NCBI GenBank assembly: GCA_002747255.1
Contig: PDUC01000036.1
Coordinates: 16,732-80,731, forward strand
DNA from: Acidobacteriota bacterium
Lineage (GTDB): Bacteria; Acidobacteriota; Holophagae; Acanthopleuribacterales; Acanthopleuribacteraceae
DNA: 64,000 nucleotides
Direction of reading: 5' to 3'
Below, piece after piece: positions 3,107 to 43,822 of the stretch. Both the position numbers and the translations under genes were made by a program. Each line of letters opens with the position of its first letter. The stretch's first letter is position 1. The notes under the pieces are model-generated. The model worked only from the letters and a program-made list of their open reading frames with translations. It was not told the origin of the DNA and did not search any database.

Positions 3107-3236
3107 AAGCAATAATCCGCAAAAACGCACCGTCCAGCTGCTGTGAAACCGAAATTCCGGCTCGAATGCAAAACGCTCTTTTAACATCTCTTTACATTAC
3201 ATCACATAAAATATACATTTAGCTTTTTAAAAACAC

Positions 3237-3284: not shown

Positions 3285-3304
3285 GCTTAATCAAAAAAAG
3301 AAAA

Positions 3305-7683: not shown

Positions 7684-8054
7684 TTTGTTACCTCCATCTT
7701 TTTTGTCATTACTATTTCATTCAGCAAGAATCATGCAAACATCTTGATAGTCTGGCATATAAATTGTTTCGGCCATTTAAATAGTACTGGATCATTTGCC
7801 GTATTCACCCGCTCTAAAACCCTGTTAACGGTAGATGCATTCGTCAAGAAAACAGAAATCTTTCATTGTTGATTGTAATAGTTGCAGCCTTTTTTTGACT
7901 CCACCCCATTTACCATACCGAATCACACAACATCTGGAACTTGTTTGATTCTATCTTCTACAACTTGCACTCATTCGCACATTTTTCATCCAGAAATGAT
8001 CATTTCCTCAAAACATCTTCACGCAATAAAACTCAACCGGGTCAAAAAAAGCTT

Positions 8055-8092
8055 GGGCCTTCCATTTCATGTTTTCACTCAATGGAAGGCCC
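8055..8092 (-). terminator. rho-independent (bidirectional-looking) terminator after the 8151..10238 gene
   Basis: 12-bp stem GGGCCTTCCATT / AATGGAAGGCCC with a 14-nt loop. It is flanked by an A-run (8044-8050) and a T-run (8093-8098), so a T-tract follows the hairpin on both strands. Confidence 0.8.
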
Positions 8093-8150
8093 TTTTTTCA
8101 TCCTATTTTTTCAAAAGAAAAACTAAGACTTGTTTAAAAGAATCATCAAA

Positions 8151-13997: not shown

Positions 13998-15418
13998 GGA
14001 ATCCCTTTTCTGCAGGAAGCTGGGTATCCGGTAAGGGCTTTATCGGCCGGGAAGAAATCATGCAGCGGCTCATCTATTCAAATGAAAATTGTGATTGGGT
14101 ACAGGCACAGCGGAGAATGGGAAAAACCTCCTTACTCAGACAGCTGGAAGAAAAAATCAACAAAGGACAGATCGAATCCGCGTCCATCAGGACCACTTTG
14201 GCCGTGTTTTGGGATATCCAGGGAAGTTATGACGCCAGCGGACTCCTTGAAAGTCTTGAGGACGCGCTGGACGACAGTTACGATCTGTTCCCCCAATCAT
14301 GGCATGACATGGACCCCTCGGATTTTCAGGCCGATCACCCCCATCAGACCATAAAAAATCTCACCAGACAGCTTAGAAAAAAAGCTATGGGCTTAACACT
14401 TCTCATCGATGAAGCGGAAGAGTTGATGACCTTGAATGAAAAAAATCCTGAAACTCTGGCACGACTGAGAAAAGTGTTTCACACCTCATCCAACATTCAT
14501 ACGATCATTTGTTCCACTCCACGTCTTGAAAACTTGAGACAACATCAAGCTATTGAAACATCGCCCTTTCTCCACGGATTTCAGGTCCACTACTTGAGTA
14601 CATTCAATAGAAAAGAAACACAGCAATTACTCGATATGGGTAATATCCCAGCCGATATCGGAGAAAGGATATACCAGCTCACACACGGTAATCCCTATCA
14701 AATACAATTATTTGCAAAGTACTTTTTTGAGAACAGAGATTTCGAGGAAACAAGCTTGTTCATGCAAAGCAATCCGTCTCTTTCCCAGGTACACGATGTC
14801 AACCTCGGCTTGCTCACCGAAAGAGAGCAAGAGATCCTATCAAAGTTCACCATGGATCACCTTCAATCACCCCCGTCAGAAAGTAACCAGTTGATCTTTA
14901 AGAAACTCATTAGATTGGGTTACTTATCGGGAAATGAAAAATCCCCCAGCATTGCATCGGATCTTTTCCACAAATGGCTAAAGCGGTATTTCAGTCAAAA
15001 TCTCAACCTTCATCCAAAAGACCTGAAGGACATGCCACTCAGCGAAGCAAGCAGCAAGATAGTTCGTGAGAACATTCTCAATTTGTACCAGTATCTGCTG
15101 CAAAAAATGCAACAGGGATACCGGCTGAATGTCCATGCGGGACACTTCAACGTATCCAGCATGGATAAAAAAGCCTATCCCACTCATGAAGCCTCTGAGC
15201 AGAAAGCAATAGCTCCCAACTTGAATACCCCTCTCTGGTCTCTGGCACTACAAGATCTCATCATTCTCACTCAGGAATTATTTGATTTCAAGAAACACTG
15301 GTCCTGCTTCCGCTTGATGGAATTAGCAAATAATCTGGGCAACACTACAGAAGAAGAAATTCTTGATCTTATGAATCTGATTAGAGAAGAAGCCCGGCTG
15401 GAATCGGAAAAGATCTGA
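13994..15418 (+). CDS. soluble P-loop ATPase of the same (Arch_ATPase/STAND-like) type with a helical C-terminal region
   Basis: ATGA overlap with the upstream gene. NPFSAGSWVSGKGFIGRE...AQRRMGKTSLLRQL is Walker A (nt 14104-14130) and LTLLIDEAEEL is Walker B. No TM segment is present. Confidence 0.7.
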   Translation: MRNPFSAGSWVSGKGFIGREEIMQRLIYSNENCDWVQAQRRMGKTSLLRQLEEKINKGQIESASIRTTLAVFWDIQGSYDASGLLESLEDALDDSYDLFPQSWHDMDPSDFQADHPHQTIKNLTRQLRKKAMGLTLLIDEAEELMTLNEKNPETLARLRKVFHTSSNIHTIICSTPRLENLRQHQAIETSPFLHGFQVHYLSTFNRKETQQLLDMGNIPADIGERIYQLTHGNPYQIQLFAKYFFENRDFEETSLFMQSNPSLSQVHDVNLGLLTEREQEILSKFTMDHLQSPPSESNQLIFKKLIRLGYLSGNEKSPSIASDLFHKWLKRYFSQNLNLHPKDLKDMPLSEASSKIVRENILNLYQYLLQKMQQGYRLNVHAGHFNVSSMDKKAYPTHEASEQKAIAPNLNTPLWSLALQDLIILTQELFDFKKHWSCFRLMELANNLGNTTEEEILDLMNLIREEARLESEKI

Positions 15419-30227: not shown

Positions 30228-31085
30228 GTGAACAATTTCAAAATATCCAAAATATTTTATTTTTCAGATGATTTCTCTCCAGAATTTCTCCGTGCCTTTC
30301 ACAAGAAAATCACATTCCTCAACTATCACAGGTTAACTTGGCTGTCTGTGGTTATTGTCGTCATCCACCTACCCCTTTTGGGTCTTGATTTCTTTCGGAT
30401 TACGTCCACTCAAGGCTGCGAAAAGGAGTTTTCGCAAATGATTTTTTACAGTCATATAGCGATTACATTTATATCGGCATCTTATTTCTGTATTTCAAAA
30501 TATAAAAAGCTGAACTCGGAAAATGAGGTCGCAATATTTAATGAAACGCTTATTTTGTTGGGCTCTTATTTGCTTTTCATCGCTATTATTTTCCTGTCAT
30601 ATGCCGATTTTCTCATGGTAAACAGTATCATTGTCTATATCGCCAGCTTATTCGTTTTTTCTGTTTTTGTGGTGCTGACACATTTTAGTAGTTTGTTCTT
30701 TTTCATTTTTAACACCTTTTTACTTTTTTATCTGCTGCAAACCAATGGTCAGACAGCTTTAATGATGAACCAGAAAATCAATCTGGTTGTGTTTTCTCTT
30801 TTCGCCTGGTTTATTTCGCGCGTCATTTATTACCAGCAGCTGAAAGATTATAAACAACTGACTGATAACAAGAACCTGGTAGAATCCCTGCAAAAAGCGA
30901 AAGAAGATGTGAAAGTGCTTTCAGGATTCCTGCCAATTTGTTCCTATTGTAAAAAAGTCCGGGATGATGAAGGGTACTGGAGTCAGCTTGAGGCCTATAT
31001 CGGCAAACACTCCGAAGCAACATTCAGTCACGGAGTCTGCCCAGCATGCATAGAGAAACATTACAAGCACAAGTCCAGCAGTTAA
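30228..31085 (+). CDS. polytopic membrane sensor-like protein with a C-terminal Cys-rich module
   Basis: GTG start and about 6 TM segments. The C-terminus is LPICSYCKKVRDDEGYWSQLEAYIGKHSEATFSHGVCPACIEKHY (nt ~30916-31070). Confidence 0.7.
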   Translation: MNNFKISKIFYFSDDFSPEFLRAFHKKITFLNYHRLTWLSVVIVVIHLPLLGLDFFRITSTQGCEKEFSQMIFYSHIAITFISASYFCISKYKKLNSENEVAIFNETLILLGSYLLFIAIIFLSYADFLMVNSIIVYIASLFVFSVFVVLTHFSSLFFFIFNTFLLFYLLQTNGQTALMMNQKINLVVFSLFAWFISRVIYYQQLKDYKQLTDNKNLVESLQKAKEDVKVLSGFLPICSYCKKVRDDEGYWSQLEAYIGKHSEATFSHGVCPACIEKHYKHKSSS

Positions 31086-31189: not shown

Positions 31190-33397
31190 TTAATCCAACA
31201 CATAGTCCTTGTACTCTTTCTTGATTTTCTCCATGAACTCCTTGGACACCCTGATGGAATCTTCTTCTGTATCAATTACTTTAGGGGTGATCATGACGAT
31301 GAGCTCATTTCGTGAGCTGCCCTGATTTTTATTCGTAAAAAGGTGCTTCAGAAGAGGTATGCGACCAAGAAGGGGAACAAAAGTTTTTCCACCTGATTCC
31401 TGATCTGAAATCATACCACCCATAACAACTGTCTGCCCATCACGCACAATCATTTCCGTATTGAGATCATTCTGATTGATAGGAGGCGCTGGTATGTCTG
31501 GACTCGCTTCACCTGGACTGGAAACACTAAGCTCTATTTCCATTCTAATGAGCCCATTGGCATTGATATGGGGGGTAACTGTCAAGCTGACACCTGTATT
31601 GCGATACTGTATGCTTGAAGACACGAAAGGTGTTGATGTGCTTGATGACTGCCCGGGATAAGTCGTCCTCGAGTTGGGGATGGGAACATCTTTGCCAATG
31701 GAGATTGAAGCCGGTTTATTATCAATGGCCATCATGTGGGGCTGTTGCAGGATATTGGCAAAACCCTTGGTTTTTGCAGCATCGAGCCTGGCTTTTAAAA
31801 CATCAGTGAAACCCTTGAAAGTGTAGGAAAAGAAGTTACCTCCACCTGAACCACTCAAGAGGCCAAGCGATCGATAACGCTGTTCAGTGCCCCCTTCACC
31901 CAAGCTTTGGCTTTCTTCTGCTCCCAAAGCCAAATCACCGCTCTGGCCAGACCAATCGAATCCAAGGGAAAACGTGTCGTTCAAGTCAACCCTGAACACG
32001 GTCACTTCGAGAAAGACCTGGCGAGGCAGAATATCTATCTTCTCCAATGTCTTCCGAATCTTATGATATTGGTTGGGAGTCGTATGAAAAATCAGAGCAT
32101 TGTTCTCTTCATCAACAATCATGGTTTCTCCGTTTTGGTTTTGTCCGCTTACTGGAGTTGTACCTGGACTCATGCTGCCGCCTTTGTTCGCACGGTTCGT
32201 TCGGTTCATGTTGTTGGCTTTCGCGTTCTGGTTCGGGTTCGTTGTTCGCCTGTTGGAGGCACCCTTACTGCCAGATGAGGCCGCTCTTCCCTGTTGAATA
32301 CCCAAGAGCGAACTCAGGGTGTTGGACAATGTGGCAGCGGTTGTGTTCTGAACATTGTAAATAAATATGGTGGGTTCTTCGAACTGAGCTTCCTGGTCCA
32401 GTTTTTCGAGCCAGAAGGATATTTCATCAAAAACATCCCGGAATGTGCTGATAACCAAAATGGCATTTAACGCTTCGATCGGATGAATGCTGACCTGTTG
32501 TGATTCTGATTCATAGCCGTAAGCAGTCATTATTTCATCGAGTTGAGTTGCCATTTCCGTTGCATCCACAAAAGACAGATTATACAGGACCATCTTCTTG
32601 TTGTAGAGTGCGCTGACATCGAACAAGGGGATGATATCCATGGCTTTCTTGATGAAGTGATTTTTGTCAATAATGATTATTGCGTTGTGTTTCGGCTCTT
32701 CCATCACTCGTGCTGAAGGACTTAAGAATCCCTTTATAATGTTAGACATATCGCTAGCCGTAACATATTTTAAAGGAATAATCTGCATAGCGAGTTCTTC
32801 TTGCAAGAGGTTTTCATTGGGTCGGCTGCCATAGAGCATGTTCAAACCGGGAATGACATCCGCTGAATCCAGAGGAACAATTCGAATGAACCCCGCTTCC
32901 TGAACCCATGTCAAGTCGTGCAACTTGAGAAGTAAATCAAAAAGCTCGGATGTCTTCATTTTCGCTTCGCCCTCAACCATACCAATGGTTATGGTTTGAT
33001 CCTTAACCGAAGGATCGATAATGTAGTTCACTTTCATAATTTGGCAGAGCGTGTGAATGAGATCGTACATTTTCGCTTCTTCGGTGTTAATCTGGGGCGC
33101 CTCAGGGTCCACTTCAAAAGGCAGTTCTTCTTGTCGCTCCAGCACTTTGTCAGGCAGAAAAACGGATTCCCTGATTTCTTCCTGCTTGTGGTCCACAACA
33201 ATCTCTTCTGGAGGAAGCTCTTCTTCTTCCATTTCTTCTATTTTTTCTTCTTCGGGCTTCTCTTCTCTGGAAACCACATTATCCGAAAACTTACCCTTAA
33301 AGGCCTTCTCTAGCAAATCAGGCTTTTTCTCACAGGAGATCAACACCAATAAAGTGATGATAAGAAGTGGGATAGTAGTAATATTTTTCATGGTCAA
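31190..33397 (-). CDS. gspD: type II secretion system secretin GspD (lipoprotein-type)
   Basis: The C-terminal secretin signature is VPLLGRIPLLKHLF...ELIVMITPKVI, preceded by N-domains. The N-terminus LLVLISC is a lipobox. There is an acidic stretch EEKPEEEKIEEMEEEE and an internal N/R/K-rich insert. Confidence 0.9.
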   Translation of the reverse strand: MTMKNITTIPLLIITLLVLISCEKKPDLLEKAFKGKFSDNVVSREEKPEEEKIEEMEEEELPPEEIVVDHKQEEIRESVFLPDKVLERQEELPFEVDPEAPQINTEEAKMYDLIHTLCQIMKVNYIIDPSVKDQTITIGMVEGEAKMKTSELFDLLLKLHDLTWVQEAGFIRIVPLDSADVIPGLNMLYGSRPNENLLQEELAMQIIPLKYVTASDMSNIIKGFLSPSARVMEEPKHNAIIIIDKNHFIKKAMDIIPLFDVSALYNKKMVLYNLSFVDATEMATQLDEIMTAYGYESESQQVSIHPIEALNAILVISTFRDVFDEISFWLEKLDQEAQFEEPTIFIYNVQNTTAATLSNTLSSLLGIQQGRAASSGSKGASNRRTTNPNQNAKANNMNRTNRANKGGSMSPGTTPVSGQNQNGETMIVDEENNALIFHTTPNQYHKIRKTLEKIDILPRQVFLEVTVFRVDLNDTFSLGFDWSGQSGDLALGAEESQSLGEGGTEQRYRSLGLLSGSGGGNFFSYTFKGFTDVLKARLDAAKTKGFANILQQPHMMAIDNKPASISIGKDVPIPNSRTTYPGQSSSTSTPFVSSSIQYRNTGVSLTVTPHINANGLIRMEIELSVSSPGEASPDIPAPPINQNDLNTEMIVRDGQTVVMGGMISDQESGGKTFVPLLGRIPLLKHLFTNKNQGSSRNELIVMITPKVIDTEEDSIRVSKEFMEKIKKEYKDYVLD

Positions 33398-33403
33398 TTC
33401 CTG

Positions 33404-33967
33404 TTAAAAGTCTATTTTTGGTTGTGTTTTATTGGTTTTCTTGATAATTTTTGGCGCGTTCTTTTTCTGTAACTTTGAAACCTTTTTTTTGTTTTGTTTT
33501 ATCGGTGGTTTCTTTTTCTTCTTTCCCTTCGTTTTTCCTTTAACACTTTTCTTTTGTTTTAATGGAGAGTTTGCGGCTAAAGATTTTTTGCTCCCGCCTC
33601 TTTTGTCTTTTTTCTTTTCCTGTTCAAACAATTTAATCGTGTGTTTTTGAACCCCCTGCTTGAGAACCACCTGATCATAGGTAATTTCGTCCACCTGATA
33701 ACCATTGGCCTTTTCACCAGGGGCAAGGTATTTAAAGACGGGCTTTCCCTCCACCCTGAACGAAAGCAGTGCGTATTTCATTTTTCCTAAAATCAGCGTA
33801 CCATCACAAAGAGGCAGATCGACAGGTACAGCCGGTCCTTCATCAACCTCTTCCACTTTTTCTTTCTTTCCCCGGGCGGGATCAAACGGGTTTCTATCCA
33901 GAATCTGGTCCACTAAATTCTGAGATAACAGTTGATTGAAACATAGGCATAATATCAGTATTCTCAT
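33404..33967 (-). CDS. PilP/GspC-like T2SS periplasmic component with a Lys-rich tail
   Basis: RNPFDP motif, then a beta domain (GTLILGKMKYALLSF...YQVDEITYDQVVLKQ). The C-terminal ~70 aa is mostly Lys. Confidence 0.55.
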   Translation of the reverse strand: MRILILCLCFNQLLSQNLVDQILDRNPFDPARGKKEKVEEVDEGPAVPVDLPLCDGTLILGKMKYALLSFRVEGKPVFKYLAPGEKANGYQVDEITYDQVVLKQGVQKHTIKLFEQEKKKDKRGGSKKSLAANSPLKQKKSVKGKTKGKKKKKPPIKQNKKKVSKLQKKNAPKIIKKTNKTQPKIDF

Positions 33968-34878
33968 ATTCTTCCCTTCCCGCGTTTCTTATTGGTATGG
34001 GTTAGAGGACGAGGTTTTTTAGCCAACTCTTTTTTAGTGGGAACGGCTTTCTGGCGGCCTTTCTTTTCTTGCACCTTTGTCTGTTCCTTGTTCTCTCTGT
34101 TCTTCAGCTTGGTCGCTGGTTCTTTTTCCTCTTTCTTGCCGGTTTTGATTGGTTTAACGACGGTCTTTTCGCGGCTTTTTTCTGCCTTGTTTTTAGGGGA
34201 TTCTCCAGGAGTATCGACTTGAGTTACATCAAGAGCCTTTTCTTCCTCTGTTACGGGATCGTTATGTTCTTCACCTTGTTTAACTTGATAAAGCGTCGCT
34301 AAAACACAGGAGCCGCGAACCGTTACCTCTTCATCGGTTTCCTCTTTCTTGTCACGGCGTCTTCTCTTTCTCTTTTTGTTGACATTGATGTTCAAGGTAT
34401 CCACAGCCATGAAGTACTCTTTTTGACTTGTCTCTCCCAGAAAATCAAGAAGATTGACGAGAGGACAGTTGAACCCGAAATAGGCTTTTACCTGCGTGAG
34501 CTCGCTTCCCTTGTAGAGTTCCTTAGACCGCCTTTTGTTGAGTGAATTTAAATTGATATCTGTTTTATCAGCTACTTTGGTGATGTCTTCCTGCAACAAA
34601 AACTGCGCGTCATTTTTGGATTTCATTCTCAGGATACGCTCTTCGGCATCTTCCATGATTTTAGATAAAACCTTCGTCTGCTTGATATAATTTTTGGGAT
34701 TGTCTTTTAACCTTTCCAGTAACACAGTTTGTGCATTCATGGAGGTTTCAATTTGAAATTGAAGATCGAGTTTCTTTTGGGCATAAGCTTCATAAGCCCA
34801 ATTTGCCAGGTAAATAATCAGGACCACAATCATGAACTTGATGATTTTCCCTTCTCTCTTACTAAACTTCCTACTCAT
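33964..34878 (-). CDS. GspM/PilO-like bitopic T2SS component with a Lys/Arg-rich tail
   Basis: N-terminal TM IIKFMIVVLIIYLANWAY, a coiled coil, then KKRKRRRRDKKEE and a ~90-aa Lys-rich C-terminus. Its position in the operon fits this role. Confidence 0.5.
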   Translation of the reverse strand: MSRKFSKREGKIIKFMIVVLIIYLANWAYEAYAQKKLDLQFQIETSMNAQTVLLERLKDNPKNYIKQTKVLSKIMEDAEERILRMKSKNDAQFLLQEDITKVADKTDINLNSLNKRRSKELYKGSELTQVKAYFGFNCPLVNLLDFLGETSQKEYFMAVDTLNINVNKKRKRRRRDKKEETDEEVTVRGSCVLATLYQVKQGEEHNDPVTEEEKALDVTQVDTPGESPKNKAEKSREKTVVKPIKTGKKEEKEPATKLKNRENKEQTKVQEKKGRQKAVPTKKELAKKPRPLTHTNKKRGKGRI

Positions 34879-36277
34879 CGAATGCCTCCAGGACGATTTC
34901 CATTTTCAGGTTCGTTTTTCGCTTCTGGCCCGACCTGGCTTTACTGATAGCATTGGCCGTGTCGACATTGGTAAAGTAGGGTAATTTTTGAAGCTTGTTC
35001 CTCACCTCAAAAAAGTCATCTGTTTCAATCTGCATGGTCAACTTGTAACCATCCCGAATGGCAAAACTGGTGAGAAAAGAATGGTCAGGAAGCTCATGCG
35101 CCAAAATCCCCATTACCTTTAAAACGAGGTTATCGCCATGAATGTACTTCTTGTAAGCTTCTACTTTCTCCTTGCGTTCCTCAAATTCATTTCGTACTTG
35201 AGTCAATTCTTGAAACTGTTCTTCCAGTTTATGGTTCCTCGATTGGTACCGATCCAGTTCAGCAACCAGCGCCTGATAGTCTTTGTATTCCCTTGACATG
35301 TACCACCCAGCAACAGCCAGAAGCAGGACAATCCCGATTAAGACCGGTAATTGATGGTGTCTTTTCTGCAGTTTAACGGGAAGGATATTCAGATTACAGG
35401 GCACTTTCTCATGGATGGATGTCAAAGACAAACCAACGCCTGACAGGCTTTGCGCAGGAATGACATTGTCTTTGGTGTCTTTTAATTCCGTAAGTTCAAT
35501 CCCCAGTTTTTTCAACAGAAAAACGTGCGCATCTGTAGCGGAACCCGACAGGATAAAATCATCGACCTCATACGGATCAAGGCGAGTTTCACTGAATGCT
35601 GCCTCCAGCGTTCGTCCGAGCTTTTCTTCAGATAGTTCGCCTTCCAATTGACTGTAATAGACACCGCTAAGGTGACCTTCTTTGAGTCCGAGAACTTCGA
35701 TTTCATTCGGTGTAAAATGCAGTATGGCCAAATTCTTTTTCTTGAATTGGCTCCTGTATATTTTGGAACAGGCATTGACGAGAACCAGATGCTCCACGGT
35801 AATACCGGCTAAATGCAGACCCCACTTTCTGATGAGTCCAAACACTTTACCGATGTATGTCTTGGGAATGCAGTAAATCTGTACTTTCAGCAGGTCCTCC
35901 CTGCCGATGATCTGATGAAAGACATCGATTTCCTGAGGATCCCCGGGATAGAGCGCTTCAATCTGATATTCAATGGTATCTGAAAGTGATTCTTCGGCCT
36001 CTTTTGGGAATTCTGATACAAAGGGATGAACTTCCGATCTGGGTATGGCAAGAAAGGCATCGGCTCGTTTCACTTTTGCTCGAGACACAAACTCGTCAAT
36101 AAAATCCTGTATTTCCTGATCTTCGAGTTTCTCATAGTTTTCCAGAACGGCCGTTTCTTTATACTGGAATTGATTGAATCGATTGCCGATTGCCGTCAAC
36201 ACCAGGTTAGGCCCCGAAAAAGCCAGGCCCCAGGCCTTTGTTTTCAGGTTAAGTTCATAATTCATCATCGTTTTCAT
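34871..36277 (-). CDS. GspL-like (PilM-PilN fusion type) T2SS assembly protein
   Basis: Cytoplasmic actin-like domain, TM LPVLIGIVLLLAVAGWYM, and a periplasmic PilN-like domain. The ORF track start at 36307 is TTG. I prefer the ATG at 36277, but the start is uncertain. Confidence 0.6.
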   Translation of the reverse strand: MKTMMNYELNLKTKAWGLAFSGPNLVLTAIGNRFNQFQYKETAVLENYEKLEDQEIQDFIDEFVSRAKVKRADAFLAIPRSEVHPFVSEFPKEAEESLSDTIEYQIEALYPGDPQEIDVFHQIIGREDLLKVQIYCIPKTYIGKVFGLIRKWGLHLAGITVEHLVLVNACSKIYRSQFKKKNLAILHFTPNEIEVLGLKEGHLSGVYYSQLEGELSEEKLGRTLEAAFSETRLDPYEVDDFILSGSATDAHVFLLKKLGIELTELKDTKDNVIPAQSLSGVGLSLTSIHEKVPCNLNILPVKLQKRHHQLPVLIGIVLLLAVAGWYMSREYKDYQALVAELDRYQSRNHKLEEQFQELTQVRNEFEERKEKVEAYKKYIHGDNLVLKVMGILAHELPDHSFLTSFAIRDGYKLTMQIETDDFFEVRNKLQKLPYFTNVDTANAISKARSGQKRKTNLKMEIVLEAFDE

Positions 36278-37262
36278 TGCGGGGGTCTGCCTCGTCTGCG
36301 TGTTCAAGAGTGAAGTCCTTGTGACTGATTATGGAGTAAACCTTCTGGCCACCGATATATCGGACTTCTTCTTCAACGGTGTACCGCACAGGAGAATCAA
36401 AAATAAACCCTGTGGATTTGATTGTAAAATGATTTCCGCTTTTTATGGTAAAAAATTTGCTCAACTTATCAGTTGCTTCCAGTGAAATCAATGACCCTGC
36501 CTCCTGGACATTCTCAAAAGCCTTTTCTTCACGGGCATCTATAATTTCCTGTGCTTCTTCATCGCTAACCTCAAGAAAAGCCACCAGAATTTCCCTGGAG
36601 CAGGAGTTAATATCGAAATGGGTAATCGTGGGTGGACTCATACCCAGAATATCTTTCAAGCCAGGCCCTCTGGCACCTTCACTGAATCCGCCGTGATACA
36701 TCTCCTCCGTGATACCCTTGACCAGCATGATTTCTTCAACACTTAAAAAGGGTCCGTTTCTCGGTTCGTAGGAAGGAGTCAAGGTGGAATAGTATTCGCC
36801 TTCAGCGCCCATGGGATTGAGTTCATCGTCTTCGTCTGTCCAGTCCAGGATGGCATCGATCATGGCATCTCTTTCCATTTCATCTTCTGTAAAAAGAGAA
36901 AGTGCTTGATTCCAAAGATCGCGATTCTGAGAGTTAACCGGCATCTTGGCCGATTCTGACTCAATGTAACAGACACAATAGCCTTCATCGAACTCGTAGG
37001 CATACTTCGTTTTGGGCTTGAATTCTTCTTCGGCTCGATTCCTGGTAGCTGCAAAATCAAATTTGGTTTTTTCAATACCGGCTCTGGCCAGCCAATAGGC
37101 TTTTGTTTTCTCTTTCAAGAGCCGCGTGCGGTCGATGTCCATTCGGGAGGACTGAATTAAACCCAGGGTTATGATGACCAGGGCGACAATAATCCAGAGT
37201 ACCGTCAAGAGGATATTACCCCGTCTACTTCCCGGAATGGCGGTCCCTTTTCTATTGACCAT
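36255..37262 (-). CDS. gspK: T2SS minor pseudopilin GspK
   Basis: Start at the ATG at 37262: MVNRKGTAIPGSRRGNILLTVLWIIVALVIITLGL, the typical GspK N-terminus without Glu5. The longer ORF to 37499 overlaps gspJ. Confidence 0.7.
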   Translation of the reverse strand: MVNRKGTAIPGSRRGNILLTVLWIIVALVIITLGLIQSSRMDIDRTRLLKEKTKAYWLARAGIEKTKFDFAATRNRAEEEFKPKTKYAYEFDEGYCVCYIESESAKMPVNSQNRDLWNQALSLFTEDEMERDAMIDAILDWTDEDDELNPMGAEGEYYSTLTPSYEPRNGPFLSVEEIMLVKGITEEMYHGGFSEGARGPGLKDILGMSPPTITHFDINSCSREILVAFLEVSDEEAQEIIDAREEKAFENVQEAGSLISLEATDKLSKFFTIKSGNHFTIKSTGFIFDSPVRYTVEEEVRYIGGQKVYSIISHKDFTLEHADEADPRNENDDEL

Positions 37263-38331
37263 CAAAGAAGTCCCCTTGTTTGCTGCCTCTTCGATCCAGG
37301 TTCCCACTGCTGTAAACGGGAATGACCATTCGAACGCCGTCGAGTTCCTCTGTATCGACGTCCTCTGTGATTCCGGGCTCTTCATAGAAGAGAATGAACT
37401 CGATAGCAGACGGATACGTTCCGCTGTTGCCCCGAACATTCCAGCTTGTTTCCCAGTCTTCCTCTTCATCTTCCTCTTCTGCGTCCCGGCTCTCTGCATT
37501 TGGTTTTCGATAGCGAATGGAGAAACGTCTCAAAGGCCCCAACAGGGTCACCTGAGTCGTCGCCTCAGACTCTTCGTTAAATATTGCATCCAGAGGAACA
37601 TCGTCACTCTCGTCTTCGTCTTCCTCTTCATCTTCATCCAGCTGACCCTCTTCAAGGTCCTCAGGACGATTTTCAATATCGGCAGATGCTCCCGTTTGGT
37701 TCATGAATAAATTGGTCTCCTGAATAACGAGATAGAGATTACCTTCCAGCTCTTCGACATCCTCTGAATCTTCACCATCTTCAACGCTGTGTTCAGGAGG
37801 CGGTGGGCCCTCAGCGCCAATGGAAGGGGGCTCTCCGTCCTGTTCCGTATCACCTTCATCCTGCACAACATAGTATTTGACGGAAACTTGTCCTGGAAAG
37901 TCGGATAAAAATGAAACCGTAGAAACAAATTCAAGTAACTGGGTTTCGCCTTTAAAGTAACTGGCTCCATTGGGCAATTGAAAGGCGTCTTCTTTTTTAC
38001 TGTCCTTTTTACGGTCTCGTTTATTATTTACTTTGCCCTGTCTGTCTTTGCGTTTTTCAGCCTTTTTCGCTTGTTTCCTTTTGCTGGCCGGTTTTTGATT
38101 GTTCAAATTTTGAGCATCTTCAAGATAGAAAAGACTTGAACACTGTCGTTTGATGAGATCCAGTACCGTACGTCGGTTGTAATTGACGGCTGTTGTCTTT
38201 TCAACAGCTTCCCAGGCGTTAATGGAAGCTCTCAGGCTGCCGGCTATAATGACCACCACCATAGCACCCAGGAGTACGGCAAGCATGAGTTCAATAAGCG
38301 TAAACGCCCTTTTCACATCTCTTCTCCCCAC
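37252..38331 (-). CDS. gspJ: T2SS minor pseudopilin GspJ-like with large charged low-complexity inserts
   Basis: Prepilin N-terminus KRAFTLIELMLAVLLGAMVVVI. Inserts: KRKQAKKAEKRKDRQGKVNNKRDRKKDSKKE, EDGEDSEDVEELEG, LDEDEEEDEDESDD and AEEEDEEED. Confidence 0.65.
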   Translation of the reverse strand: MGRRDVKRAFTLIELMLAVLLGAMVVVIIAGSLRASINAWEAVEKTTAVNYNRRTVLDLIKRQCSSLFYLEDAQNLNNQKPASKRKQAKKAEKRKDRQGKVNNKRDRKKDSKKEDAFQLPNGASYFKGETQLLEFVSTVSFLSDFPGQVSVKYYVVQDEGDTEQDGEPPSIGAEGPPPPEHSVEDGEDSEDVEELEGNLYLVIQETNLFMNQTGASADIENRPEDLEEGQLDEDEEEDEDESDDVPLDAIFNEESEATTQVTLLGPLRRFSIRYRKPNAESRDAEEEDEEEDWETSWNVRGNSGTYPSAIEFILFYEEPGITEDVDTEELDGVRMVIPVYSSGNLDRRGSKQGDFFDGQ

Positions 38332-38705
38332 AAGTAATAGGTCGTCAGCTCATAGCTGGATTCACCGTAACCCTCAGGCCATCTGGTGGTTGCAACGACT
38401 TTGAGTAGCACGATATCGGTATCGACATCCAATTCGGTATCTGCAGGTTCAATGTGGACGTTCCAGATATAATCGCCATCTTCACCACTTAAATCAGCAT
38501 ACTCATTCCAGTCATCGGCTTCATTGAGGTCGATGTAGGTCCAGTGCAGTTGATTTTCGGTAATAAAAATACCCCTTTCATAGTCCTGAATGCGCTGAAC
38601 GGCATTTATCGTCCGCGTTTGCGATCCAATTAACACGACCAAAGCAATAGCTAGAATCATCACAGCAGCCATTACTTCTACCAGCGTAAACCCCCTTCTG
38701 CTCAT
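38313..38705 (-). CDS. gspI: T2SS minor pseudopilin GspI
   Basis: MSRRGFTLVEVMAAVMILAIALVVL is a prepilin methylation motif. Size and operon position fit GspI. Confidence 0.75.
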   Translation of the reverse strand: MSRRGFTLVEVMAAVMILAIALVVLIGSQTRTINAVQRIQDYERGIFITENQLHWTYIDLNEADDWNEYADLSGEDGDYIWNVHIEPADTELDVDTDIVLLKVVATTRWPEGYGESSYELTTYYLWGEEM

Positions 38706-39415
38706 TGATCCACCTCAACAGGTTCTTCCGATTCCTGAAAAAAGGCCTGAACTTCCTCGGTTTTTAATTTGAGAACTCGACCCCGTCCGGAAATCAGATT
38801 CAATTCAGAGAGAAAGGCCGTTTCAACTTCTTCCTTCTCTTCATTGTAAACAGCCAGTAACATGGACATAGTAATCAAACCCCGACCTTCTGATATATAA
38901 ACAGACTCTGTGCTTTCATCATCATAGGACGATTCGTCTTCGGCATTGGCTGTTGCCAGTCTCTCAGGTGTCAGAAGTCTTTCATTCAGCTTAATAGCCA
39001 GAACCTTTGCTGACGATTCAAGTTCTGCCGTTCGCTTTTCACTGAGCCTCGGATCTAAGTAGGAAAACGACTTTTTCTTCGTGTCAAATTCAATGACAAG
39101 GGGAACACCTGTAGCCTTGGTGTAGTCCAGCATGCTGCGCATGAAGGAAATCAGATGATTGGCATCATTGCGTACTTGAATGGATTCCCGTCCATTCATG
39201 AACACGACACTGGCACCCCCTAACAAGATGAGAATAATGGCAACCACTGCCATAAGCTCCACCAGCGTGAATGCATGCCTTGATTGACGCAAACGGGAGA
39301 CATGTCTTAAACCCACATGTACTTTAAGCAAGTCTCTTTGGCTTGTAAAGGGGCTGTGTAAACGGGTGTATCTCAAACCGCATAAGTGAGGGTGTCGGGT
39401 ATTGAAAATGGACAT
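38702..39415 (-). CDS. gspH: T2SS minor pseudopilin GspH-like (true start probably downstream of 39415)
   Basis: SRHAFTLVELMAVVAIILILLGG is a prepilin motif. The annotated start would give a 46-aa leader, so an internal GTG/TTG start is likely. Confidence 0.65.
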   Translation of the reverse strand: MSIFNTRHPHLCGLRYTRLHSPFTSQRDLLKVHVGLRHVSRLRQSRHAFTLVELMAVVAIILILLGGASVVFMNGRESIQVRNDANHLISFMRSMLDYTKATGVPLVIEFDTKKKSFSYLDPRLSEKRTAELESSAKVLAIKLNERLLTPERLATANAEDESSYDDESTESVYISEGRGLITMSMLLAVYNEEKEEVETAFLSELNLISGRGRVLKLKTEEVQAFFQESEEPVEVDQ

Positions 39416-39479
39416 ACCGTGACTCTATGCCAAGAAGACTCTTCCATTCATCGTGGAAAGAAAAGTCCGATCTTGAGGG

Positions 39480-39932
39480 TTACTCCTCATCCCCTTCTTC
39501 ACTCCAGCTCTTGATGTCCCGAGCGGCACCGTCACCGCCTTCTTTGCCATCGCTGCCAAGACAGATGATTTCATATGGACGGCCATCATTACCCGGCACC
39601 GTCAACTCGTACTTGTTCTGCCAGGGATCTTTGAGTTCTTTTTCAAGATAGGGACCGTTCCAACCGCGTACTTCATCAGGCTCTTTGACCAAATCTCGTG
39701 TTTTCTCGGGAAACTGGCCTGTTTCCATGCGGTAAAGCTGAATGGCCTGCTCCAGTTTCTTGATATCTGTTTTGGCACGTGTCACCTTGGCCTTGTCAAC
39801 CTGGGTAAAGAATTTGGGTGCAATAACGGCCGCCAAAAGGCCAATAATGACGACAACAGCCATCATTTCCACCAAGGTAAAACCACGGTTCAGCCTAACT
39901 TTTCTTCCTGTTTTGTTTTCATTTTGGTTCAT
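39480..39932 (-). CDS. gspG: T2SS major pseudopilin GspG
   Basis: NRGFTLVEMMAVVVIIGLLAA, DIKKLEQAIQLYRMETGQFP, GWNGPYLE and DPWQNKY are classic GspG signatures. Confidence 0.9.
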   Translation of the reverse strand: MNQNENKTGRKVRLNRGFTLVEMMAVVVIIGLLAAVIAPKFFTQVDKAKVTRAKTDIKKLEQAIQLYRMETGQFPEKTRDLVKEPDEVRGWNGPYLEKELKDPWQNKYELTVPGNDGRPYEIICLGSDGKEGGDGAARDIKSWSEEGDEE

Positions 39933-39953
39933 ATTTTTCGTTCTCCTAATATA

Positions 39954-41189
39954 CTAAATAGCTGCTTGGCTCAGGCTTGTGACGGCTAACAGCATGGCCG
40001 CTACAATGAACCCAACAACCACGAACATGGCGATGATCATGACAGGTTCAAACATAGCCAATAGCCTTTTGATGTTTCTCTCTATATTTTGCTGGTAGAT
40101 GCCAGCCACTTTTTGGAACATTTCACCAAGGGTTCCCGTTTCTTCTCCAACGGTAATCAGATGAACAACCATTTTGGGGAAGACTTTCGCCTGTGAAAGA
40201 GCCACACTCATGCCATCGCCTCGCTTGACAGCCTTAATGGCGGGTTCCATGGCCTTGATGAACACGGAATTATCGAACAATTCACGAACAATGGACATCG
40301 CTTCTAAAAGTGACACCGAACTGGTGAGAAGAATTCCAAGAGCATTGGAAAACTTGGTTACTTCAACCTCCGTGATAATGGTTTTCAATACCGGTGCCCT
40401 TAATTTGAAGCGGTCCCACTTGTACCTGCCTTCAGGTGTTGATTTCCATCTTGAGAACCACACCCAGATAATTAGTACCAGAGCGCTCAGCAACCATTTA
40501 TAGGTTGAGAGGAAGTTGGTTATATCAACCAGGGACCTTGTAATAAAAGGCAGTTCCTGACCCACCTGATCAAAGACTTCCTGAAACCTCGGCAACACAA
40601 AAAGAACCAGTACCAGCACCGTTCCCAAACCAACAAGCAAGAGAATGGAAGGGTAGATGAGGGCAGAAACAAGAAAGGATTTCAGGTTTTGCCTTGATTC
40701 CTGATAGTCCCGTAAACTGAAGAGAATTTTTTCAAGCACGCCTGCGGTTTCACCTGTTTTAACCATGTTGATGTAAAGCCGGCCGAAGACACGTGGATGT
40801 TTGGCTAGCGATTCGGCAAAACTCTGGCCTGCTGATACGTCTTTGAGGACCCGTTGAATGACGTCCTTCATGGGAGTGTGCTGGGTGGTGTCGATCAAGA
40901 GCCTCAATGCCTTGGCCAGCGGCAAGCCCGCTTTGAGTAAGGTCGCAAGCTTATCTGTAAAATCCAATACATGAGCACCGCTGATGCGATTGGAGGGCAA
41001 CAAGGCCTCTAAATCAAAGCCCTTCAGTGAAATTTCCTTGCGCTGTTGGTTTTTATCTGAAACAAGAATGGGAAACAATCCCATTTTCTCCAGCTTTTCA
41101 AGTGCTTTTTGTTTGCTCTCCATTTCAAGCTGCCCGGTTTCCACTTTCCCGTGGCTATTGGTTGCGCGATAGTAAAAAGTAGCCATCAA
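39954..41189 (-). CDS. gspF: T2SS inner-membrane platform protein GspF
   Basis: Duplicated GspF domain, three TMs, and motifs GLPLAKAL...SFAESL and VGEETGTLGEMF. Confidence 0.9.
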   Translation of the reverse strand: MMATFYYRATNSHGKVETGQLEMESKQKALEKLEKMGLFPILVSDKNQQRKEISLKGFDLEALLPSNRISGAHVLDFTDKLATLLKAGLPLAKALRLLIDTTQHTPMKDVIQRVLKDVSAGQSFAESLAKHPRVFGRLYINMVKTGETAGVLEKILFSLRDYQESRQNLKSFLVSALIYPSILLLVGLGTVLVLVLFVLPRFQEVFDQVGQELPFITRSLVDITNFLSTYKWLLSALVLIIWVWFSRWKSTPEGRYKWDRFKLRAPVLKTIITEVEVTKFSNALGILLTSSVSLLEAMSIVRELFDNSVFIKAMEPAIKAVKRGDGMSVALSQAKVFPKMVVHLITVGEETGTLGEMFQKVAGIYQQNIERNIKRLLAMFEPVMIIAMFVVVGFIVAAMLLAVTSLSQAAI

Positions 41190-42919
41190 TGTGCCTCGTG
41201 CGTAACCCGGAACAACTCTTCAACGGTTGTTACACCGTCAAGCACTTTCCTCCAGCCGTCTTCCCGCAGGGTCTTCATGCCCTTTTTTCTTGCCAGAGAA
41301 CGCAGCTCCGTTACATCCGGACGTTTCATGATCAGGGCACGAGTCTCATCGTCAAGACGAAAAAGCTCATAGATGCCTTTACGTCCCGAATAGCCTGTCT
41401 CACCGCAGAGTTTGCACCCCTTGCCTCTGTAAAACATGGCTTCGGTAGGGTCATCGACTAATTTGTAAATATGTCGGTGAAAGCCGTAATCCGGTTTGTA
41501 AGGTTCCTTGCAAGCCGGACAGATAACACGCACCAGGCGCTGAGCCAGAACACCCTGCAGTGTTGAAACGAGCAGGTAATCTTCAATTCCCATATCAAGC
41601 ATCCGGTTTACCGCGCCCGGTGCATCATTGGTGTGCACCGTGGAAAAGACAATGTGCCCGGTCAGGCTGGCCTGTATGGCAACTTCAGCTGTTTCAGAAT
41701 CCCTGATCTCGCCAACCATGATGATATCGGGGTCTTGACGCATAAGCGTTTTCAATCCCGATGCGAAAGTCAGTCCCACTTTGGTGTTGACATGAATCTG
41801 GTTGACACCTTCCAATTGATACTCCACCGGATTTTCAATGGTCAAGATTTTCTTTTTCTCGTCATTTAACAAGTTCAACGCGGCGTAAAGTGTGGTTGTT
41901 TTCCCGCTGCCAGTGGGACCGGAAACGAGAATAATGCCATGCGGCTGGGAAATGAGCTCGGTTAATTCGCTCTCCAGTTTGCTGTCGAGACCGAGATTGC
42001 TCATGTTGATGAGTGAAATGGACTCTTTATCCAACAGCCGCAAAACAACGGACTCACCGTAGAGGGTCGGAACTGTCGAAATCCTGAAATCAATTTCTTT
42101 TCCCAGGATTCTCATTTTAAGACGACCATCCTGGGGGACGCGTTTCTCGGCAATATCTAGTTTGGAAATAATTTTAATTCTGGAGATAACAGCCGGAGCC
42201 AAATTGACCGGTGGTGATTCCATTTCTTTCAAAACGCCGTCTACCCGATATCTTACCTTGAGAACACGTTCAAACGGCTCGATGTGAATATCACTGGCTC
42301 TCATCTCAACCGCCCGGGAAATAATGAGATTCACCAGCCTGATAACAGGCGCCTCTGAAGCCAAATCCCTCAAATGCTCTACATCATCGTAATCTTCATC
42401 CATGGAGTCCACACCGGAAACAATGTCCTCCATCTGAGTGGTCCCTGAGCCAAAATAACGCTCAATAGCATCCTGTATCGACGTGGGCGGTGAAAGCGAG
42501 AGATGAAGCTCAAAGCCCAGCTTCTCTCTCAAAATGGAGAGTGCCTCCTTGTTGGCCGGATCTTCGAGAGCAATAAAAAGGGTTCGCTTTTCTTCGTCCA
42601 GTTTGTAGGGAAGGATGTTGTTACTTTTCAAAAACTTAACAGAAATGAATTCCAGTTCAGGACCCATTTCCGGAAACTGTTCCGGATCCAGATAAGGAAC
42701 ATCCAGTTGATCACTCAAAATAACAATGGCATCTCTTTCTGTCAGAAAACCCATATCCACAAGGATTTTGCCGATTTTAGTTCCCGACTCCTTCTGCAAC
42801 AGCAGAGCTCTTTCTAGATCTTTCTGAGTGATCCTGTTCCTCTCGATCAGGTATTCTCCGAACTTTTTTCTCCCGAACTTAAATCGAGGTTTCTCTAATT
42901 CTTCCTGTAATTGCTCCAA
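41186..42919 (-). CDS. gspE: T2SS ATPase GspE with an MshEN-type N-terminal domain
   Basis: Walker A VSGPTGSGKTTTL, Asp box, Walker B IMVGEIRD, His box and the tetracysteine CPACK...CKLCGETGY. The N-terminus carries two 24-aa MshEN-like motifs separated by 5 residues. Confidence 0.92.
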   Translation of the reverse strand: MEQLQEELEKPRFKFGRKKFGEYLIERNRITQKDLERALLLQKESGTKIGKILVDMGFLTERDAIVILSDQLDVPYLDPEQFPEMGPELEFISVKFLKSNNILPYKLDEEKRTLFIALEDPANKEALSILREKLGFELHLSLSPPTSIQDAIERYFGSGTTQMEDIVSGVDSMDEDYDDVEHLRDLASEAPVIRLVNLIISRAVEMRASDIHIEPFERVLKVRYRVDGVLKEMESPPVNLAPAVISRIKIISKLDIAEKRVPQDGRLKMRILGKEIDFRISTVPTLYGESVVLRLLDKESISLINMSNLGLDSKLESELTELISQPHGIILVSGPTGSGKTTTLYAALNLLNDEKKKILTIENPVEYQLEGVNQIHVNTKVGLTFASGLKTLMRQDPDIIMVGEIRDSETAEVAIQASLTGHIVFSTVHTNDAPGAVNRMLDMGIEDYLLVSTLQGVLAQRLVRVICPACKEPYKPDYGFHRHIYKLVDDPTEAMFYRGKGCKLCGETGYSGRKGIYELFRLDDETRALIMKRPDVTELRSLARKKGMKTLREDGWRKVLDGVTTVEELFRVTHEAH

Positions 42920-43091: not shown

Positions 43092-43382
43092 TCATGAAAA
43101 AGCACCTGCAACAAGTGCCCTTTGACATGCTTTTAGGAAAATGATCCACTCCTGTTTTTCACTATTGGACTCTATTTTTGTGGCTTTTTCCCGAAAGCCC
43201 AACCATTGGTTGAGACGAAGTTGAACCTGGAAAAGTTCACAAAGAATATATTCTACCCGCTTTTTTAAGGGAACTCTATGAATATTCAACTTCTGCACCT
43301 GCCAGAAGCTGGAAATAATGCGTGGCGCCTCTGATCGCAATGAAAAAGACCCCGATGACATGCGTGCTGTCATCGGGGCCAA
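43092..43382 (-). CDS. hypothetical small protein downstream of fliS (weak call)
   Basis: 96-aa ORF 23 nt after fliS on the same strand. No motif was recognised and coding status is uncertain. Confidence 0.3.
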   Translation of the reverse strand: MAPMTARMSSGSFSLRSEAPRIISSFWQVQKLNIHRVPLKKRVEYILCELFQVQLRLNQWLGFREKATKIESNSEKQEWIIFLKACQRALVAGAFS

Positions 43383-43405: not shown

Positions 43406-43822
43406 TTATCCTGAAAGAGCCAGGTTTCCGCTGGCATTCCCCTGGGTTGCCATTTCAGAAGCAACTTTGGCCCAGGAAGCTCTTAATTCCGTAAACATAT
43501 TTTTTAATTGTTCCAATACTTCCAGGTCTTCATGTAAACTGACTTTCATGAGCTGGGAACTGAAGAAGTTATAGAGTCGATCGAGGTTTCTCGCTATTTC
43601 GCCGCCGCGTTCAAAATCCAGCGTTGCCTGTAATTCTTCAACAATCGCAAGCACTTTATTGACGTATTTCATCTTGTTTTGTAAGTCGCCTTCTTTAATG
43701 GCTGTTTCGGCAGTCGTTAAAAATCGAATCATACCGTCGTAACACATGACAACCAACTGCTCCGGTGAAGTGTTGACGCTGTTGTTTCGATATTGATTAG
43801 CCGTATAAGTGGCAGCATACAT
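43406..43822 (-). CDS. fliS: flagellin-specific export chaperone FliS family protein
   Basis: YRNNSVNTSPEQLVVMCYDGMIRFL matches the conserved FliS N-terminus (Y-x-x-N-x-V-x-T-x-x-P-x-x-L). It is a four-helix-sized protein with a GGAGG Shine-Dalgarno. Confidence 0.85.
   Translation of the reverse strand: MYAATYTANQYRNNSVNTSPEQLVVMCYDGMIRFLTTAETAIKEGDLQNKMKYVNKVLAIVEELQATLDFERGGEIARNLDRLYNFFSSQLMKVSLHEDLEVLEQLKNMFTELRASWAKVASEMATQGNASGNLALSG

Follow-up and report, generated by a model that had tools for sequence, protein, structure and literature searches.

Conserved charged disordered segments in a type II secretion operon of a Holophagae-related Acidobacteriota lineage, with a predicted liposecretin and a GspC-like protein lacking a PDZ domain

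The operon and its gene assignments

A 64,000-nucleotide stretch of DNA from an Acidobacteriota bacterium (GenBank assembly GCA_002747255.1, contig PDUC01000036.1, positions 16,732 to 80,731; hereafter the window) carries, at positions 31190-42919 of its reverse strand, eleven co-directional genes which the open reading frame (ORF) listing and Pfam matches place in the order gspE-F-G-H-I-J-K-L-M-C-D (Table 1). Overlaps between adjacent genes do not exceed 23 nt, and no gap is longer than 64 nt. The locus is a complete type II secretion system (T2SS)-type operon of an uncultured, Holophagae-related Acidobacteriota lineage, and an earlier reading of the window, made from the letters and reading frames alone (the sequence-only reading), had rightly described its gene order as intact and tightly packed. 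The same reading had drawn attention to charged, low-complexity extensions on several periplasmic components. These are the subject of the present study: the charged tails and loops are real, and, together with a predicted liposecretin and a putatively soluble GspC without PDZ domain, they suggest a clade-specific T2SS architecture of which literature searches gave no description. Among the 121 long reading frames of the window, stretches of 30 amino acids (aa) with at least 50% K/R or D/E were found only in gspD, the C-like and the J-like gene, and this restriction to three genes makes them a feature of the operon and not of the genome stretch.

For comparison, a set was assembled from the window and seven syntenic loci from independent assemblies, one at 97% and six at 47-72% GspK identity. 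With GspK as the query, relatives were retrieved at identities grading from 97% to 45%, among them a few labelled as Acidobacteria or Acidobacteriota metagenome-assembled genomes (MAGs). The GspG of the window had no exact match on record, and the closest relative is an MAG at 97% identity (PIE02350.1, 'Acidobacteria bacterium' at NCBI) which has also been assembled independently by Logan. A scan of GTDB species genomes with GspF gave only loci at 28-33% identity, in Omnitrophota, Patescibacteria and Acidimicrobiia, and was not used further.

Pfam assignments are secure for five genes (E, F, G, K and D) and weaker for the remaining six. The H-, I- and J-like genes match N_methyl only, and H and I are assigned by this motif, their size and their position, more weakly than K and J. 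The positional assignments of the divergent genes are fixed by an outgroup locus, L018 (GspK 28% identity), which has the same E-F-G-H-I-J-K-L-M-C-D order and in which the Pfam families T2SSJ, T2SSM_b and T2SSC match the corresponding genes. A frameshift or an assembly error may be the reason why gspE of this outgroup is broken into ORFs of 292 and 274 aa. GspL of the window has a weak PilN match, its orthologues match PilN, and the L018 protein in the same position matches PilM_2, T2SSL and PilN; the L-like gene noted earlier is present, but the PilM-PilN fusion attributed to it is the normal GspL architecture and no oddity. The longest ORFs of K, L and probably H have their starts set too far upstream. 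For gspK, the 335-aa form agrees with the gene calls in relatives, and for the gspH-like gene the longest ORF has a 44-aa leader absent in relatives, the leaders of its orthologues being ~35 aa shorter, so that translation probably begins at a start codon downstream of the first ATG. At position -1 of the predicted prepilin cleavage site, the H-like (RHA/FTLVEL) and J-like (KRA/FTLIEL) proteins have Ala, not Gly, and relatives carry sometimes the one residue and sometimes the other.

The major subunit belongs with the T2SSG pseudopilins and not with the type IV pilins, a single ATPase gene is present, and no PilT retraction ATPase was found in the operon by the ORF listing and Pfam. A type IVa pilus machine was ruled out by this one ATPase, the T2SSG major subunit, the fusion of PilM and PilN as GspL and the presence of GspK. 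A DNA-uptake machine was also rejected, as the helix-hairpin-helix matches of GspK are normal for this protein and ComEA/ComEC are absent from the operon, which likewise holds no gspN, no polysaccharide-synthesis genes and, according to Pfam, no peptidoglycan-binding domain. The two absences listed by the sequence-only reading were both confirmed: Pfam found no PDZ domain, and no prepilin peptidase gene (gspO/PilD) was found in the 64-kb window, whether the larger ORFs were compared with Pfam or all six frames were scanned for the motif G.GD.K. As the prepilin peptidase is commonly encoded elsewhere in the genome, its absence from the window is no argument against T2SS membership. Upstream, a strong terminator-like hairpin marks the edge of the operon, and fliS, which it separates from gspE, was rejected as an operon member.

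Table 1. Genes, protein segments and upstream hairpin of the gsp operon (window coordinates; a slash marks the prepilin cleavage site)
Feature	Position	Strand	Description
gspD	31190..33397	-	735 aa; Pfam Secretin E 2e-45
Secretin internal insert	32132..32302	-	residues 366-422, N/Q/R-rich, between N-domains and secretin core
Secretin N-terminal region	33089..33334	-	lipobox Cys22 to N0; acidic linker (EEKPEEEKIEEMEEEE...)
gspC-like	33404..33967	-	187 aa; no Pfam match for the window protein
GspC-like basic tail	33407..33601	-	residues 123-187, ending ...LQKKNAPKIIKKTNKTQPKIDF
gspM (subtype b)	33964..34878	-	304 aa; T2SSM_b E 0.0011
GspM C-terminal tail	33967..34290	-	residues 197-304, disordered; KPRPLTH motif near the end
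GspM basic loop	34318..34386	-	residues 165-187, NVNKKRKRRRRDKKEETDEEVTV, inside the periplasmic domain
gspL	34871..36277	-	cytoplasmic PilM-like domain, one transmembrane (TM) helix, periplasmic PilN-like domain
gspK	36255..37262	-	minor pseudopilin, trimmed start, net charge -25; Pfam T2SSK_1st E 2e-15, T2SSK, HHH_3
gspJ-like	37252..38331	-	minor pseudopilin, 352-359 aa, net charge -37; N_methyl only in Pfam
GspJ insert 4	37456..37509	-	residues 275-292; conserved EEDEEEDW motif
GspJ insert 3	37564..37707	-	residues 209-256, poly-Asp/Glu; pLDDT <50 at 225-246
GspJ insert 2	37744..37869	-	residues 155-196, acidic, Pro-rich; pLDDT 60-78
GspJ insert 1	37984..38124	-	residues 70-116, basic block KRKQAKKAEKRKDRQGKVNNKRDRKKDSKK; pLDDT 52-68
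gspI-like	38313..38705	-	minor pseudopilin, net charge -17; N_methyl motif, operon position
gspH-like	38702..39415	-	minor pseudopilin, leader ...RHA/FTLVEL; N_methyl at residues 45-68
gspG	39480..39932	-	major pseudopilin, leader ...NRG/FTLVEM; Pfam T2SSG E 6e-29 and N_methyl
gspF	39954..41189	-	inner-membrane platform protein; Pfam T2SSF E 1e-55, two repeats
gspE	41186..42919	-	secretion ATPase; Pfam T2SSE E 2e-145; 4-nt overlap with gspF
gspE N-domain	within 41186..42919	-	N-terminal, MshEN type; Pfam MshEN E 2.5e-14
Terminator-like hairpin	43348..43380	-	between fliS and gspE; 13-bp stem, 8 G-C pairs, then T run

Charged segments and their conservation

The J-like pseudopilin has 41 homologues, all of 312-378 aa and one of them from Acanthopleuribacter pedis. 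While its family profile matched PDB sequences at the N-terminal pilin helix only, an AlphaFold2 model built on 42 sequences (pLDDT 77.9) has a confident core with low-confidence zones at the basic block (80-120) and at the acidic stretches (160-195 and 220-250). Searched against the PDB with Foldseek, this model had three top matches, with probabilities of 0.97-1.0 and E values of 1e-3 to 2e-2, all of them chains from minor-pseudopilin complexes (XcpV-XcpW, XcpVWX and EpsI-EpsJ); the remaining matches were noise. Since the matched chains are ~160 residues long, they are probably GspJ-type subunits, and the J-like protein is read, on the basis of the model, as a GspJ fold with four charged disordered loop insertions. 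In the window these insertions have net charges of +10, -17, -21 and -7 (inserts 1 to 4). Inserts 2, 3 and 4 are acidic in all eight operons (-10 to -17, -9 to -21 and -3 to -7, respectively), and the tryptophan that follows insert 4, W293, is invariant in 42 sequences; insert 1, which is R/N/Q-rich in relatives, has net charges there of 0 to +11. The basic block and the three acidic blocks of the earlier description are present, as is the disorder proposed as a check, most of the charged inserts having low pLDDT, but the excess over an ordinary GspJ, such as the 245-aa GspJ of the outgroup, amounts to ~110-150 aa and not simply to ~150.

For GspM, a word-indexed search gave eight relatives only, too few for a deep alignment, and no meaningful match was obtained between the family profile and PDB sequences. 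T2SSM_b matches 8 of 11 family members (best E 7e-6). An AlphaFold2 model from eight sequences, of low confidence (pLDDT 46) and used for the order of secondary structure only, agrees with a protein made up of a TM helix, then a long helix and a small alpha/beta domain, with an unstructured tail. The loop quoted in the sequence-only reading as NVNKKRKRRRRDKKEE is present in the sequence; it has a net charge of +4 in the window and of +3 to +11 in the eight operons, with a conserved Arg-rich core. The tail, which comprises 108 aa with 25 K, 6 R and 18 D/E, has no predicted secondary structure, and in relatives it is Pro-rich and 100-176 aa long, with a KP(R/K)PL(T/S) motif conserved near the C-terminus. 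Both the loop and the Lys-rich tail were correctly recognized, but the tail varies in net charge from -6 to +13 across operons, without conservation.

The GspC-like protein is organized as a cleavable signal peptide, an NPFDPxRG motif, an acidic linker, a putative HR-type beta domain, an RGGSK motif and a basic tail, with neither TM anchor nor PDZ domain. Judging from its short, cleavable signal peptide and the absence of a TM helix, it should be soluble in the periplasm. An exhaustive search defined a family of 54 representative clusters. Pfam T2SSC matches 5 of 36 aligned members (best E 3e-7), and the best match of the family profile in the PDB, a weak one (E 0.07), is the GspC HR domain 2LNV. 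On this sequence evidence the protein, first described as PilP/GspC-like, probably belongs to the GspC family, the 'PilP-like' half of the description being corrected. Its tail contains 25 K, 1 R and 1 D/E (net +25). With Lys at 38%, the tail of about 70 residues reported earlier is present, but 'mostly Lys' was overstated. In the eight operons the tail measures 62-85 aa with a net charge of +8 to +27. More broadly, RGG[ST] followed by a tail is found in 42/54 representatives, with a median length of 72 aa and a net charge, always positive, of +5 to +29, so that the window tail stands near the top of the family range and is no outlier. The final residue is F, I or M in 46/54 representatives and Phe in 37/54, and the conserved short motifs of the protein are NPFDPxRG, LPxLDGT, RGG[ST]K, [RK]R.PP and a terminal [KR][KR]F.

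Besides its Secretin domain, GspD matches Secretin_N (E 3e-23, three stretches) and type_II_gspD_N0 (E 2e-5). A lipobox, L-I-S-C, occupies residues 19-22, the residue at +2 is not Asp, and the Cys of the lipobox is invariant throughout the eight operons and recurs in A. pedis (ASAC) and the outgroup (TLQC). Directly after the lipobox come a conserved K(Q/P)xLxxKAFxxK motif and then the acidic linker, the whole region measuring 82 aa with a net charge of -16 in the window, and 82-85 aa with -4 to -16 in the eight operons. Its place behind a conserved lipobox Cys would explain the acidic start of the secretin as a tether between lipid anchor and N0, and the secretin is, from these sequence features, a probable lipoprotein and likely a self-piloting liposecretin on an acidic tether. 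No small pilotin-like lipoprotein gene was found among the eleven operon genes or the flanking genes of the window. The internal insert, 57 aa long in the window and 54-96 aa in relatives (net 0 to +11, 10-35 N+Q), opens with a conserved ASxRR(T/S)TNP motif. The acidic start and the N/Q/R-rich insert thus both match the sequence-only reading, which had missed the lipobox Cys ahead of the former and the conserved short motifs in the tails. In the outgroup, the secretin gene call (L018:14081-16675) extends ~100 aa beyond the usual C-terminus with a Pro/Ser/Arg-rich extension.

The same eleven genes occur in the same order in 7/7 relatives (GspK identity 47-97%), and lengths vary within limits across the operons: 336-365 aa for J, 297-372 aa for M, 187-236 aa for the C-like protein and 725-770 aa for D. 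No internal stop codon was found in the 88 translated genes (eleven each from the window and the seven loci), and in the alignments every appendage is in frame, at the same position and of similar length in all eight operons. Tails absent or frame-shifted in close relatives had been named in the sequence-only reading as the sign of an artefact; they are present and in frame in the 97% assembly as well as in the six operons at 47-72%. The outgroup has disordered segments at three of the same sites, namely the GspC C-terminus, the secretin N-terminal linker and the secretin internal insert, and these are Pro/Ala-rich. From this comparison of sequences, the positions of the segments are old, and their charged composition and the GspJ loops are clade-specific. 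In one relative (L015:11022-12599), the cytoplasmic domain of GspL is enlarged by an additional acidic stretch of ~47 aa (DEDEDADPDRADDADGSAADDSADEDEDE...), and the charged low-complexity T2SS insertions of the clade are therefore not confined to periplasmic parts.

Conservation of charge, for which an alignment check had been proposed, differs between segments. It holds for the C tail and the M loop, which stay basic, and for J inserts 2-4 and the D linker, which stay acidic, but fails for the GspM tail; GspJ insert 1 and the secretin insert are weakly basic, each at 0 to +11 across the eight operons. Residues inside the appendages are poorly conserved and short motifs persist. For the pair L009/L016, dN is 0.29 in disordered and 0.09 in folded parts, with synonymous sites saturated; for the closest pair, the window and L008, dN/dS is 0.20 in disordered and 0.09 in folded parts. 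From these values, the disordered segments are estimated to be relaxed, evolving ~3x faster than the folded parts, yet still constrained.

The G+C content of the locus ranges from 45% (window) to 62% among the eight operons, and with rising G+C the disordered segments, taken together, drop in K/(K+R) from 0.74 to 0.39 (Spearman -0.95; p 3e-4 for n=8 operons which are not phylogenetically independent), whereas in the folded parts it changes only from 0.60 to ~0.50. For the C tail alone, the relation between K/(K+R) and G+C is not significant (rho -0.54). Higher-G+C relatives have Arg/Pro/Ala/Asn-rich versions of the same segments. As K/(K+R) tracks G+C, the poly-Lys appearance is compositional: the extreme Lys content is largely the low-G+C form of a conserved disordered element and not a conserved property. 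Of the extreme Lys-rich extensions described earlier, the disordered elements are therefore conserved and the Lys richness is not. What selection keeps, as far as the sequences indicate, is the position, approximate length and short motifs of the segments and, for most of them, the sign of their net charge.

These data bear on the simplest explanation of the appendages, that they are non-functional filler, i.e., neutral low-complexity expansions or artefacts tolerated in loops and termini. Their poorly conserved sequence and ~3x faster evolution would be expected under this explanation, as would a composition that follows mutational bias and lengths that vary, from 54 to 96 aa for the secretin insert and from 100 to 176 aa for the M tail. 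However, nine operons from independent assemblies have the segments in frame and at the expected sites, their dN is far below the saturated synonymous rate, the C tail keeps to 62-85 aa throughout the eight operons, and charge sign and short motifs are conserved, including the C-terminal Phe in 37/54 representatives. Given the conserved sign, length and motifs, pure filler is unlikely, and we would accord this explanation as a whole a very low probability.

Possible roles of the segments

In type IV pilus and T2SS machines, the N-terminal peptides of PilP and GspC bind the PilN/O or GspL/M platform, the HR domain contacts the secretin N0, and Pro/Lys-rich periplasmic spacers are known from TonB and TolA. 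With this background, the charged appendages probably act as flexible tethers, and a composite mechanism can be proposed, to which we would give about an even chance. The secretin would be lipidated at its conserved Cys and would reach the outer membrane by its own lipid anchor, like the liposecretin HxcQ, the acidic linker of ~80 aa serving as a tether between this anchor and N0. GspC, having lost its membrane helix and PDZ domain, would be a soluble periplasmic adaptor whose N-terminal NPFDPxRG peptide docks on the GspL/M platform and whose HR domain docks on the secretin N0. Its ~70-aa basic tail, with [RK]R.PP and the terminal [KR][KR]F, would provide a third, largely electrostatic attachment, for which an anionic membrane leaflet, the peptidoglycan or acidic regions of the machine itself could be the partner. 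The Pro/Lys-rich GspM tail would be a periplasm-spanning spacer with a terminal KPRPLTH docking peptide. Finally, the acidic loops would make the GspI-J-K tip strongly negative (J -37, K -25, I -17), and such a tip may avoid sticking to the basic ring and vestibule during movement. What the sequences show is the identity of the machine and the conservation pattern of its segments; these functions of the tails are inferred.

Several observations weigh against this composite mechanism. Lipidation of the secretin is a sequence prediction only, the position of the GspM basic loop within the fold is uncertain (pLDDT 46), and the sign of the GspM tail charge is not conserved. A hydrophobic last residue occurs in 44/46 signal-peptide forms of the C-like family and in 2/6 TM-anchored forms (Fisher p 8e-4), a link between signal peptide and C-terminal residue which is confounded by shared ancestry. 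In Acanthopleuribacter pedis, a cultured marine member of the Holophagae, the locus (L019:12068-17025, GCA_017377855.1) has the synteny SecDF-YajC-Tgt-FliS-gspE...M-D, with gspM directly adjoining gspD and no gspC-like ORF between them; nor did five C-like proteins, used as tblastn queries, match anything in the 21-kb locus of this organism. Either the soluble GspC is dispensable, or its gene may lie elsewhere.

A bolder version of the tethering idea is that the GspC basic tail ending in [KR][KR]F is a new electrostatic and hydrophobic anchor to membrane, wall or secretin which replaces TM helix and PDZ domain, and that, together with the liposecretin tether and the acidic tip loops, it forms a charge-patterned disordered lining of the channel needed for assembly or gating. 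This version is speculative, and we regard it as rather doubtful.

The opposite charges of the segments raise the question of whether they pair with each other. In this explanation, already part of the sequence-only reading as a charge-zippered mesh, the basic tails of GspC and GspM would pair with the secretin linker and the GspJ loops to form a charge-zipper or coacervate mesh, a periplasmic cage around the pseudopilus. The charges in the window are indeed nearly balanced (~+60 basic against -61 acidic), the sign of most segments is conserved, and the charged segments are all in periplasmic parts of one machine. However, the basic and acidic totals do not covary among the eight operons (r 0.45, p 0.27; with the near-duplicate left out, r 0.26), so that covariation gives the mesh no support, and in L013 the basic segments are near neutral (+10) while the acidic ones reach -34. 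Moreover, the sign of the GspM tail varies among relatives, the charge balance, which takes no account of component copy numbers, may mean nothing, and the conserved short motifs suggest specific docking over bulk electrostatics. Taken together, these points leave the mesh an improbable explanation.

Alternatively, the basic tails and the secretin insert may bind polyanions, i.e., peptidoglycan, anionic lipids, exopolysaccharide or DNA. Two versions can be envisaged: the machine would be anchored in the cell wall in this way, as it has no GspA/B, AMIN or LysM module, or it would handle a non-protein polymer, as has been proposed for secretin slime nozzles. The net positive charge of the GspC tail in 42/42 representatives with RGG[ST] fits such binding, as do the lack of a peptidoglycan-binding domain among the operon proteins and the helix-hairpin-helix motif of GspK, though this motif is normal for GspK. 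T2SS-type secretins have also been reported to be necessary for slime secretion in Myxococcus and cyanobacteria (PMC12475490), which counts in favor of the same explanation. Conversely, the strongly acidic pseudopilus tip fits polyanion handling poorly, ComEA/ComEC and polysaccharide-synthesis genes are missing from the operon, and the tails are weakly basic (+5 to +8) in some relatives. Polyanion binding seems a tentative and not very probable reading of the tails.

Neighbouring genes and relation to known secretion systems

Other features of the window touch on regulation and possible substrates. At the N-terminus of GspE (42700-42919, reverse strand, residues ~17-70), two tandem stretches, KFGEYLIERNRITQKDLERALLLQ and KIGKILVDMGFLTERDAIVILSDQ, resemble the 24-residue c-di-GMP-binding motif of MshEN domains, and this sequence likeness suggests that the secretion ATPase might be responsive to c-di-GMP. 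At 165-10238 (reverse strand), large proteins of 985, 811 and 695 aa and smaller ones have signal-peptide-like N-termini, and their sole Pfam match is a weak TGase_elicitor in the 811-aa protein; they are candidate T2SS substrates, as the sequence-only reading had already suggested. At 30228-31085 (forward strand), a polytopic membrane protein without Pfam match has a Cys-rich end, CSYCKKVRDDEGYW...HGVCPACIEKH, which by its sequence looks like a small zinc-binding module. Its counterpart in L008 is a shorter gene call of 215 aa. Two adjacent STAND/AAA-type NTPase genes at 11838-15418 (forward strand), encoding proteins of 719 aa (TPR and AAA_22/nSTAND6) and 474 aa (AAA_35/NACHT), could be a signalling or defence module. 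A lone fliS (43406-43822, reverse strand) lies directly upstream of gspE, as it does in L008, L009, L013, L016 and L019, and a scan of the larger window ORFs gave no further flagellar gene.

With the proteobacterial T2SS of Klebsiella (Pul), Vibrio (Eps) and Pseudomonas (Xcp), the operon shares the full set of components E to M together with D and a probable C, one major and four minor pseudopilins, T2SSK domains, a GspJ fold, a secretin with N0 and Secretin_N, and the lack of PilT. While the proteobacterial order is C-D-E...M, it is here E...M-C-D. GspC lacks the membrane helix and the PDZ or coiled-coil domain of its proteobacterial counterparts and has a basic disordered tail instead, GspJ is 110-150 aa longer owing to four charged loops, and GspM has a 100-aa tail; the appendages are unusual with respect to model T2SSs, as had been proposed. 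In further contrast to these systems, the secretin is a predicted lipoprotein, pilotin, gspO and gspN were not found, and H, I, J and C have diverged too far to be recognized by their Pfam models.

The closest parallel for the secretin is HxcQ, the liposecretin of the Pseudomonas aeruginosa Hxc T2SS, which Viarre and colleagues reportedly described in 2009, with a lipid anchor proposed to pilot the protein itself to the outer membrane. Both are T2SS secretins with an N-terminal lipobox, a linker before N0 and no separate pilotin. Here, however, the linker is ~80 aa long, strongly acidic and preceded by the conserved K(Q/P)xLxxKAFxxK motif, and lipidation is a prediction.

GspL, GspM and the HR domain of GspC also correspond to PilM plus PilN, PilO and PilP of the type IVa pilus PilM-N-O-P-Q set. 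In PilP, a disordered N-terminal peptide binds PilN/O and the beta domain binds the secretin N0. Whereas PilP is a lipoprotein, the C-like protein starts with a signal peptide of the ordinary kind and ends in a long basic tail, and unlike a type IVa pilus system, the operon has a G-H-I-J-K set with Pfam T2SSG and T2SSK, which make it a T2SS, and a secretin without AMIN. TonB and TolA are similar in that they are inner-membrane proteins with charged or Pro-rich periplasm-spanning segments which end in a docking element, and the (EP)n(KP)n region of TonB resembles the Pro-rich K/E GspM tail found in relatives. This is an analogy only, as there is no homology and no TonB C-terminal domain.

The outgroup L018, an operon of another non-proteobacterial lineage, shares the operon order and a PDZ-less GspC with a disordered tail of ~100 aa. 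Its secretin likewise has a Cys behind the signal peptide, an extended disordered linker and, at the corresponding internal position, an insert. It differs in that these segments are Pro/Ala-rich and not charged, GspC keeps its TM helix and has no terminal Phe, GspJ (245 aa) is without acidic loops, and GspM has a 15-aa KE tail only. In the literature, nothing specific was found on PDZ-less or disordered GspC or on Acanthopleuribacter secretion systems.

In reading these differences, caution is called for with the striking poly-Lys look, which is largely a G+C effect on a disordered segment. Nearly all mechanistic models of the T2SS come from a few Proteobacteria, with a membrane-anchored GspC carrying a PDZ or coiled-coil domain and a pilotin-dependent secretin. 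The lineage described here appears to have a different solution, kept over ~50% sequence divergence, in which a soluble, basic-tailed GspC, a secretin predicted to be lipid-anchored and an acidic tip are combined. Acanthopleuribacter pedis, a named and sequenced organism which carries the operon without the C-like gene, could serve as a starting point for experiments and, at the same time, as a natural comparison. Should the tails prove to be functional docking elements, they would show how disordered regions can replace folded modules in a trans-envelope machine.

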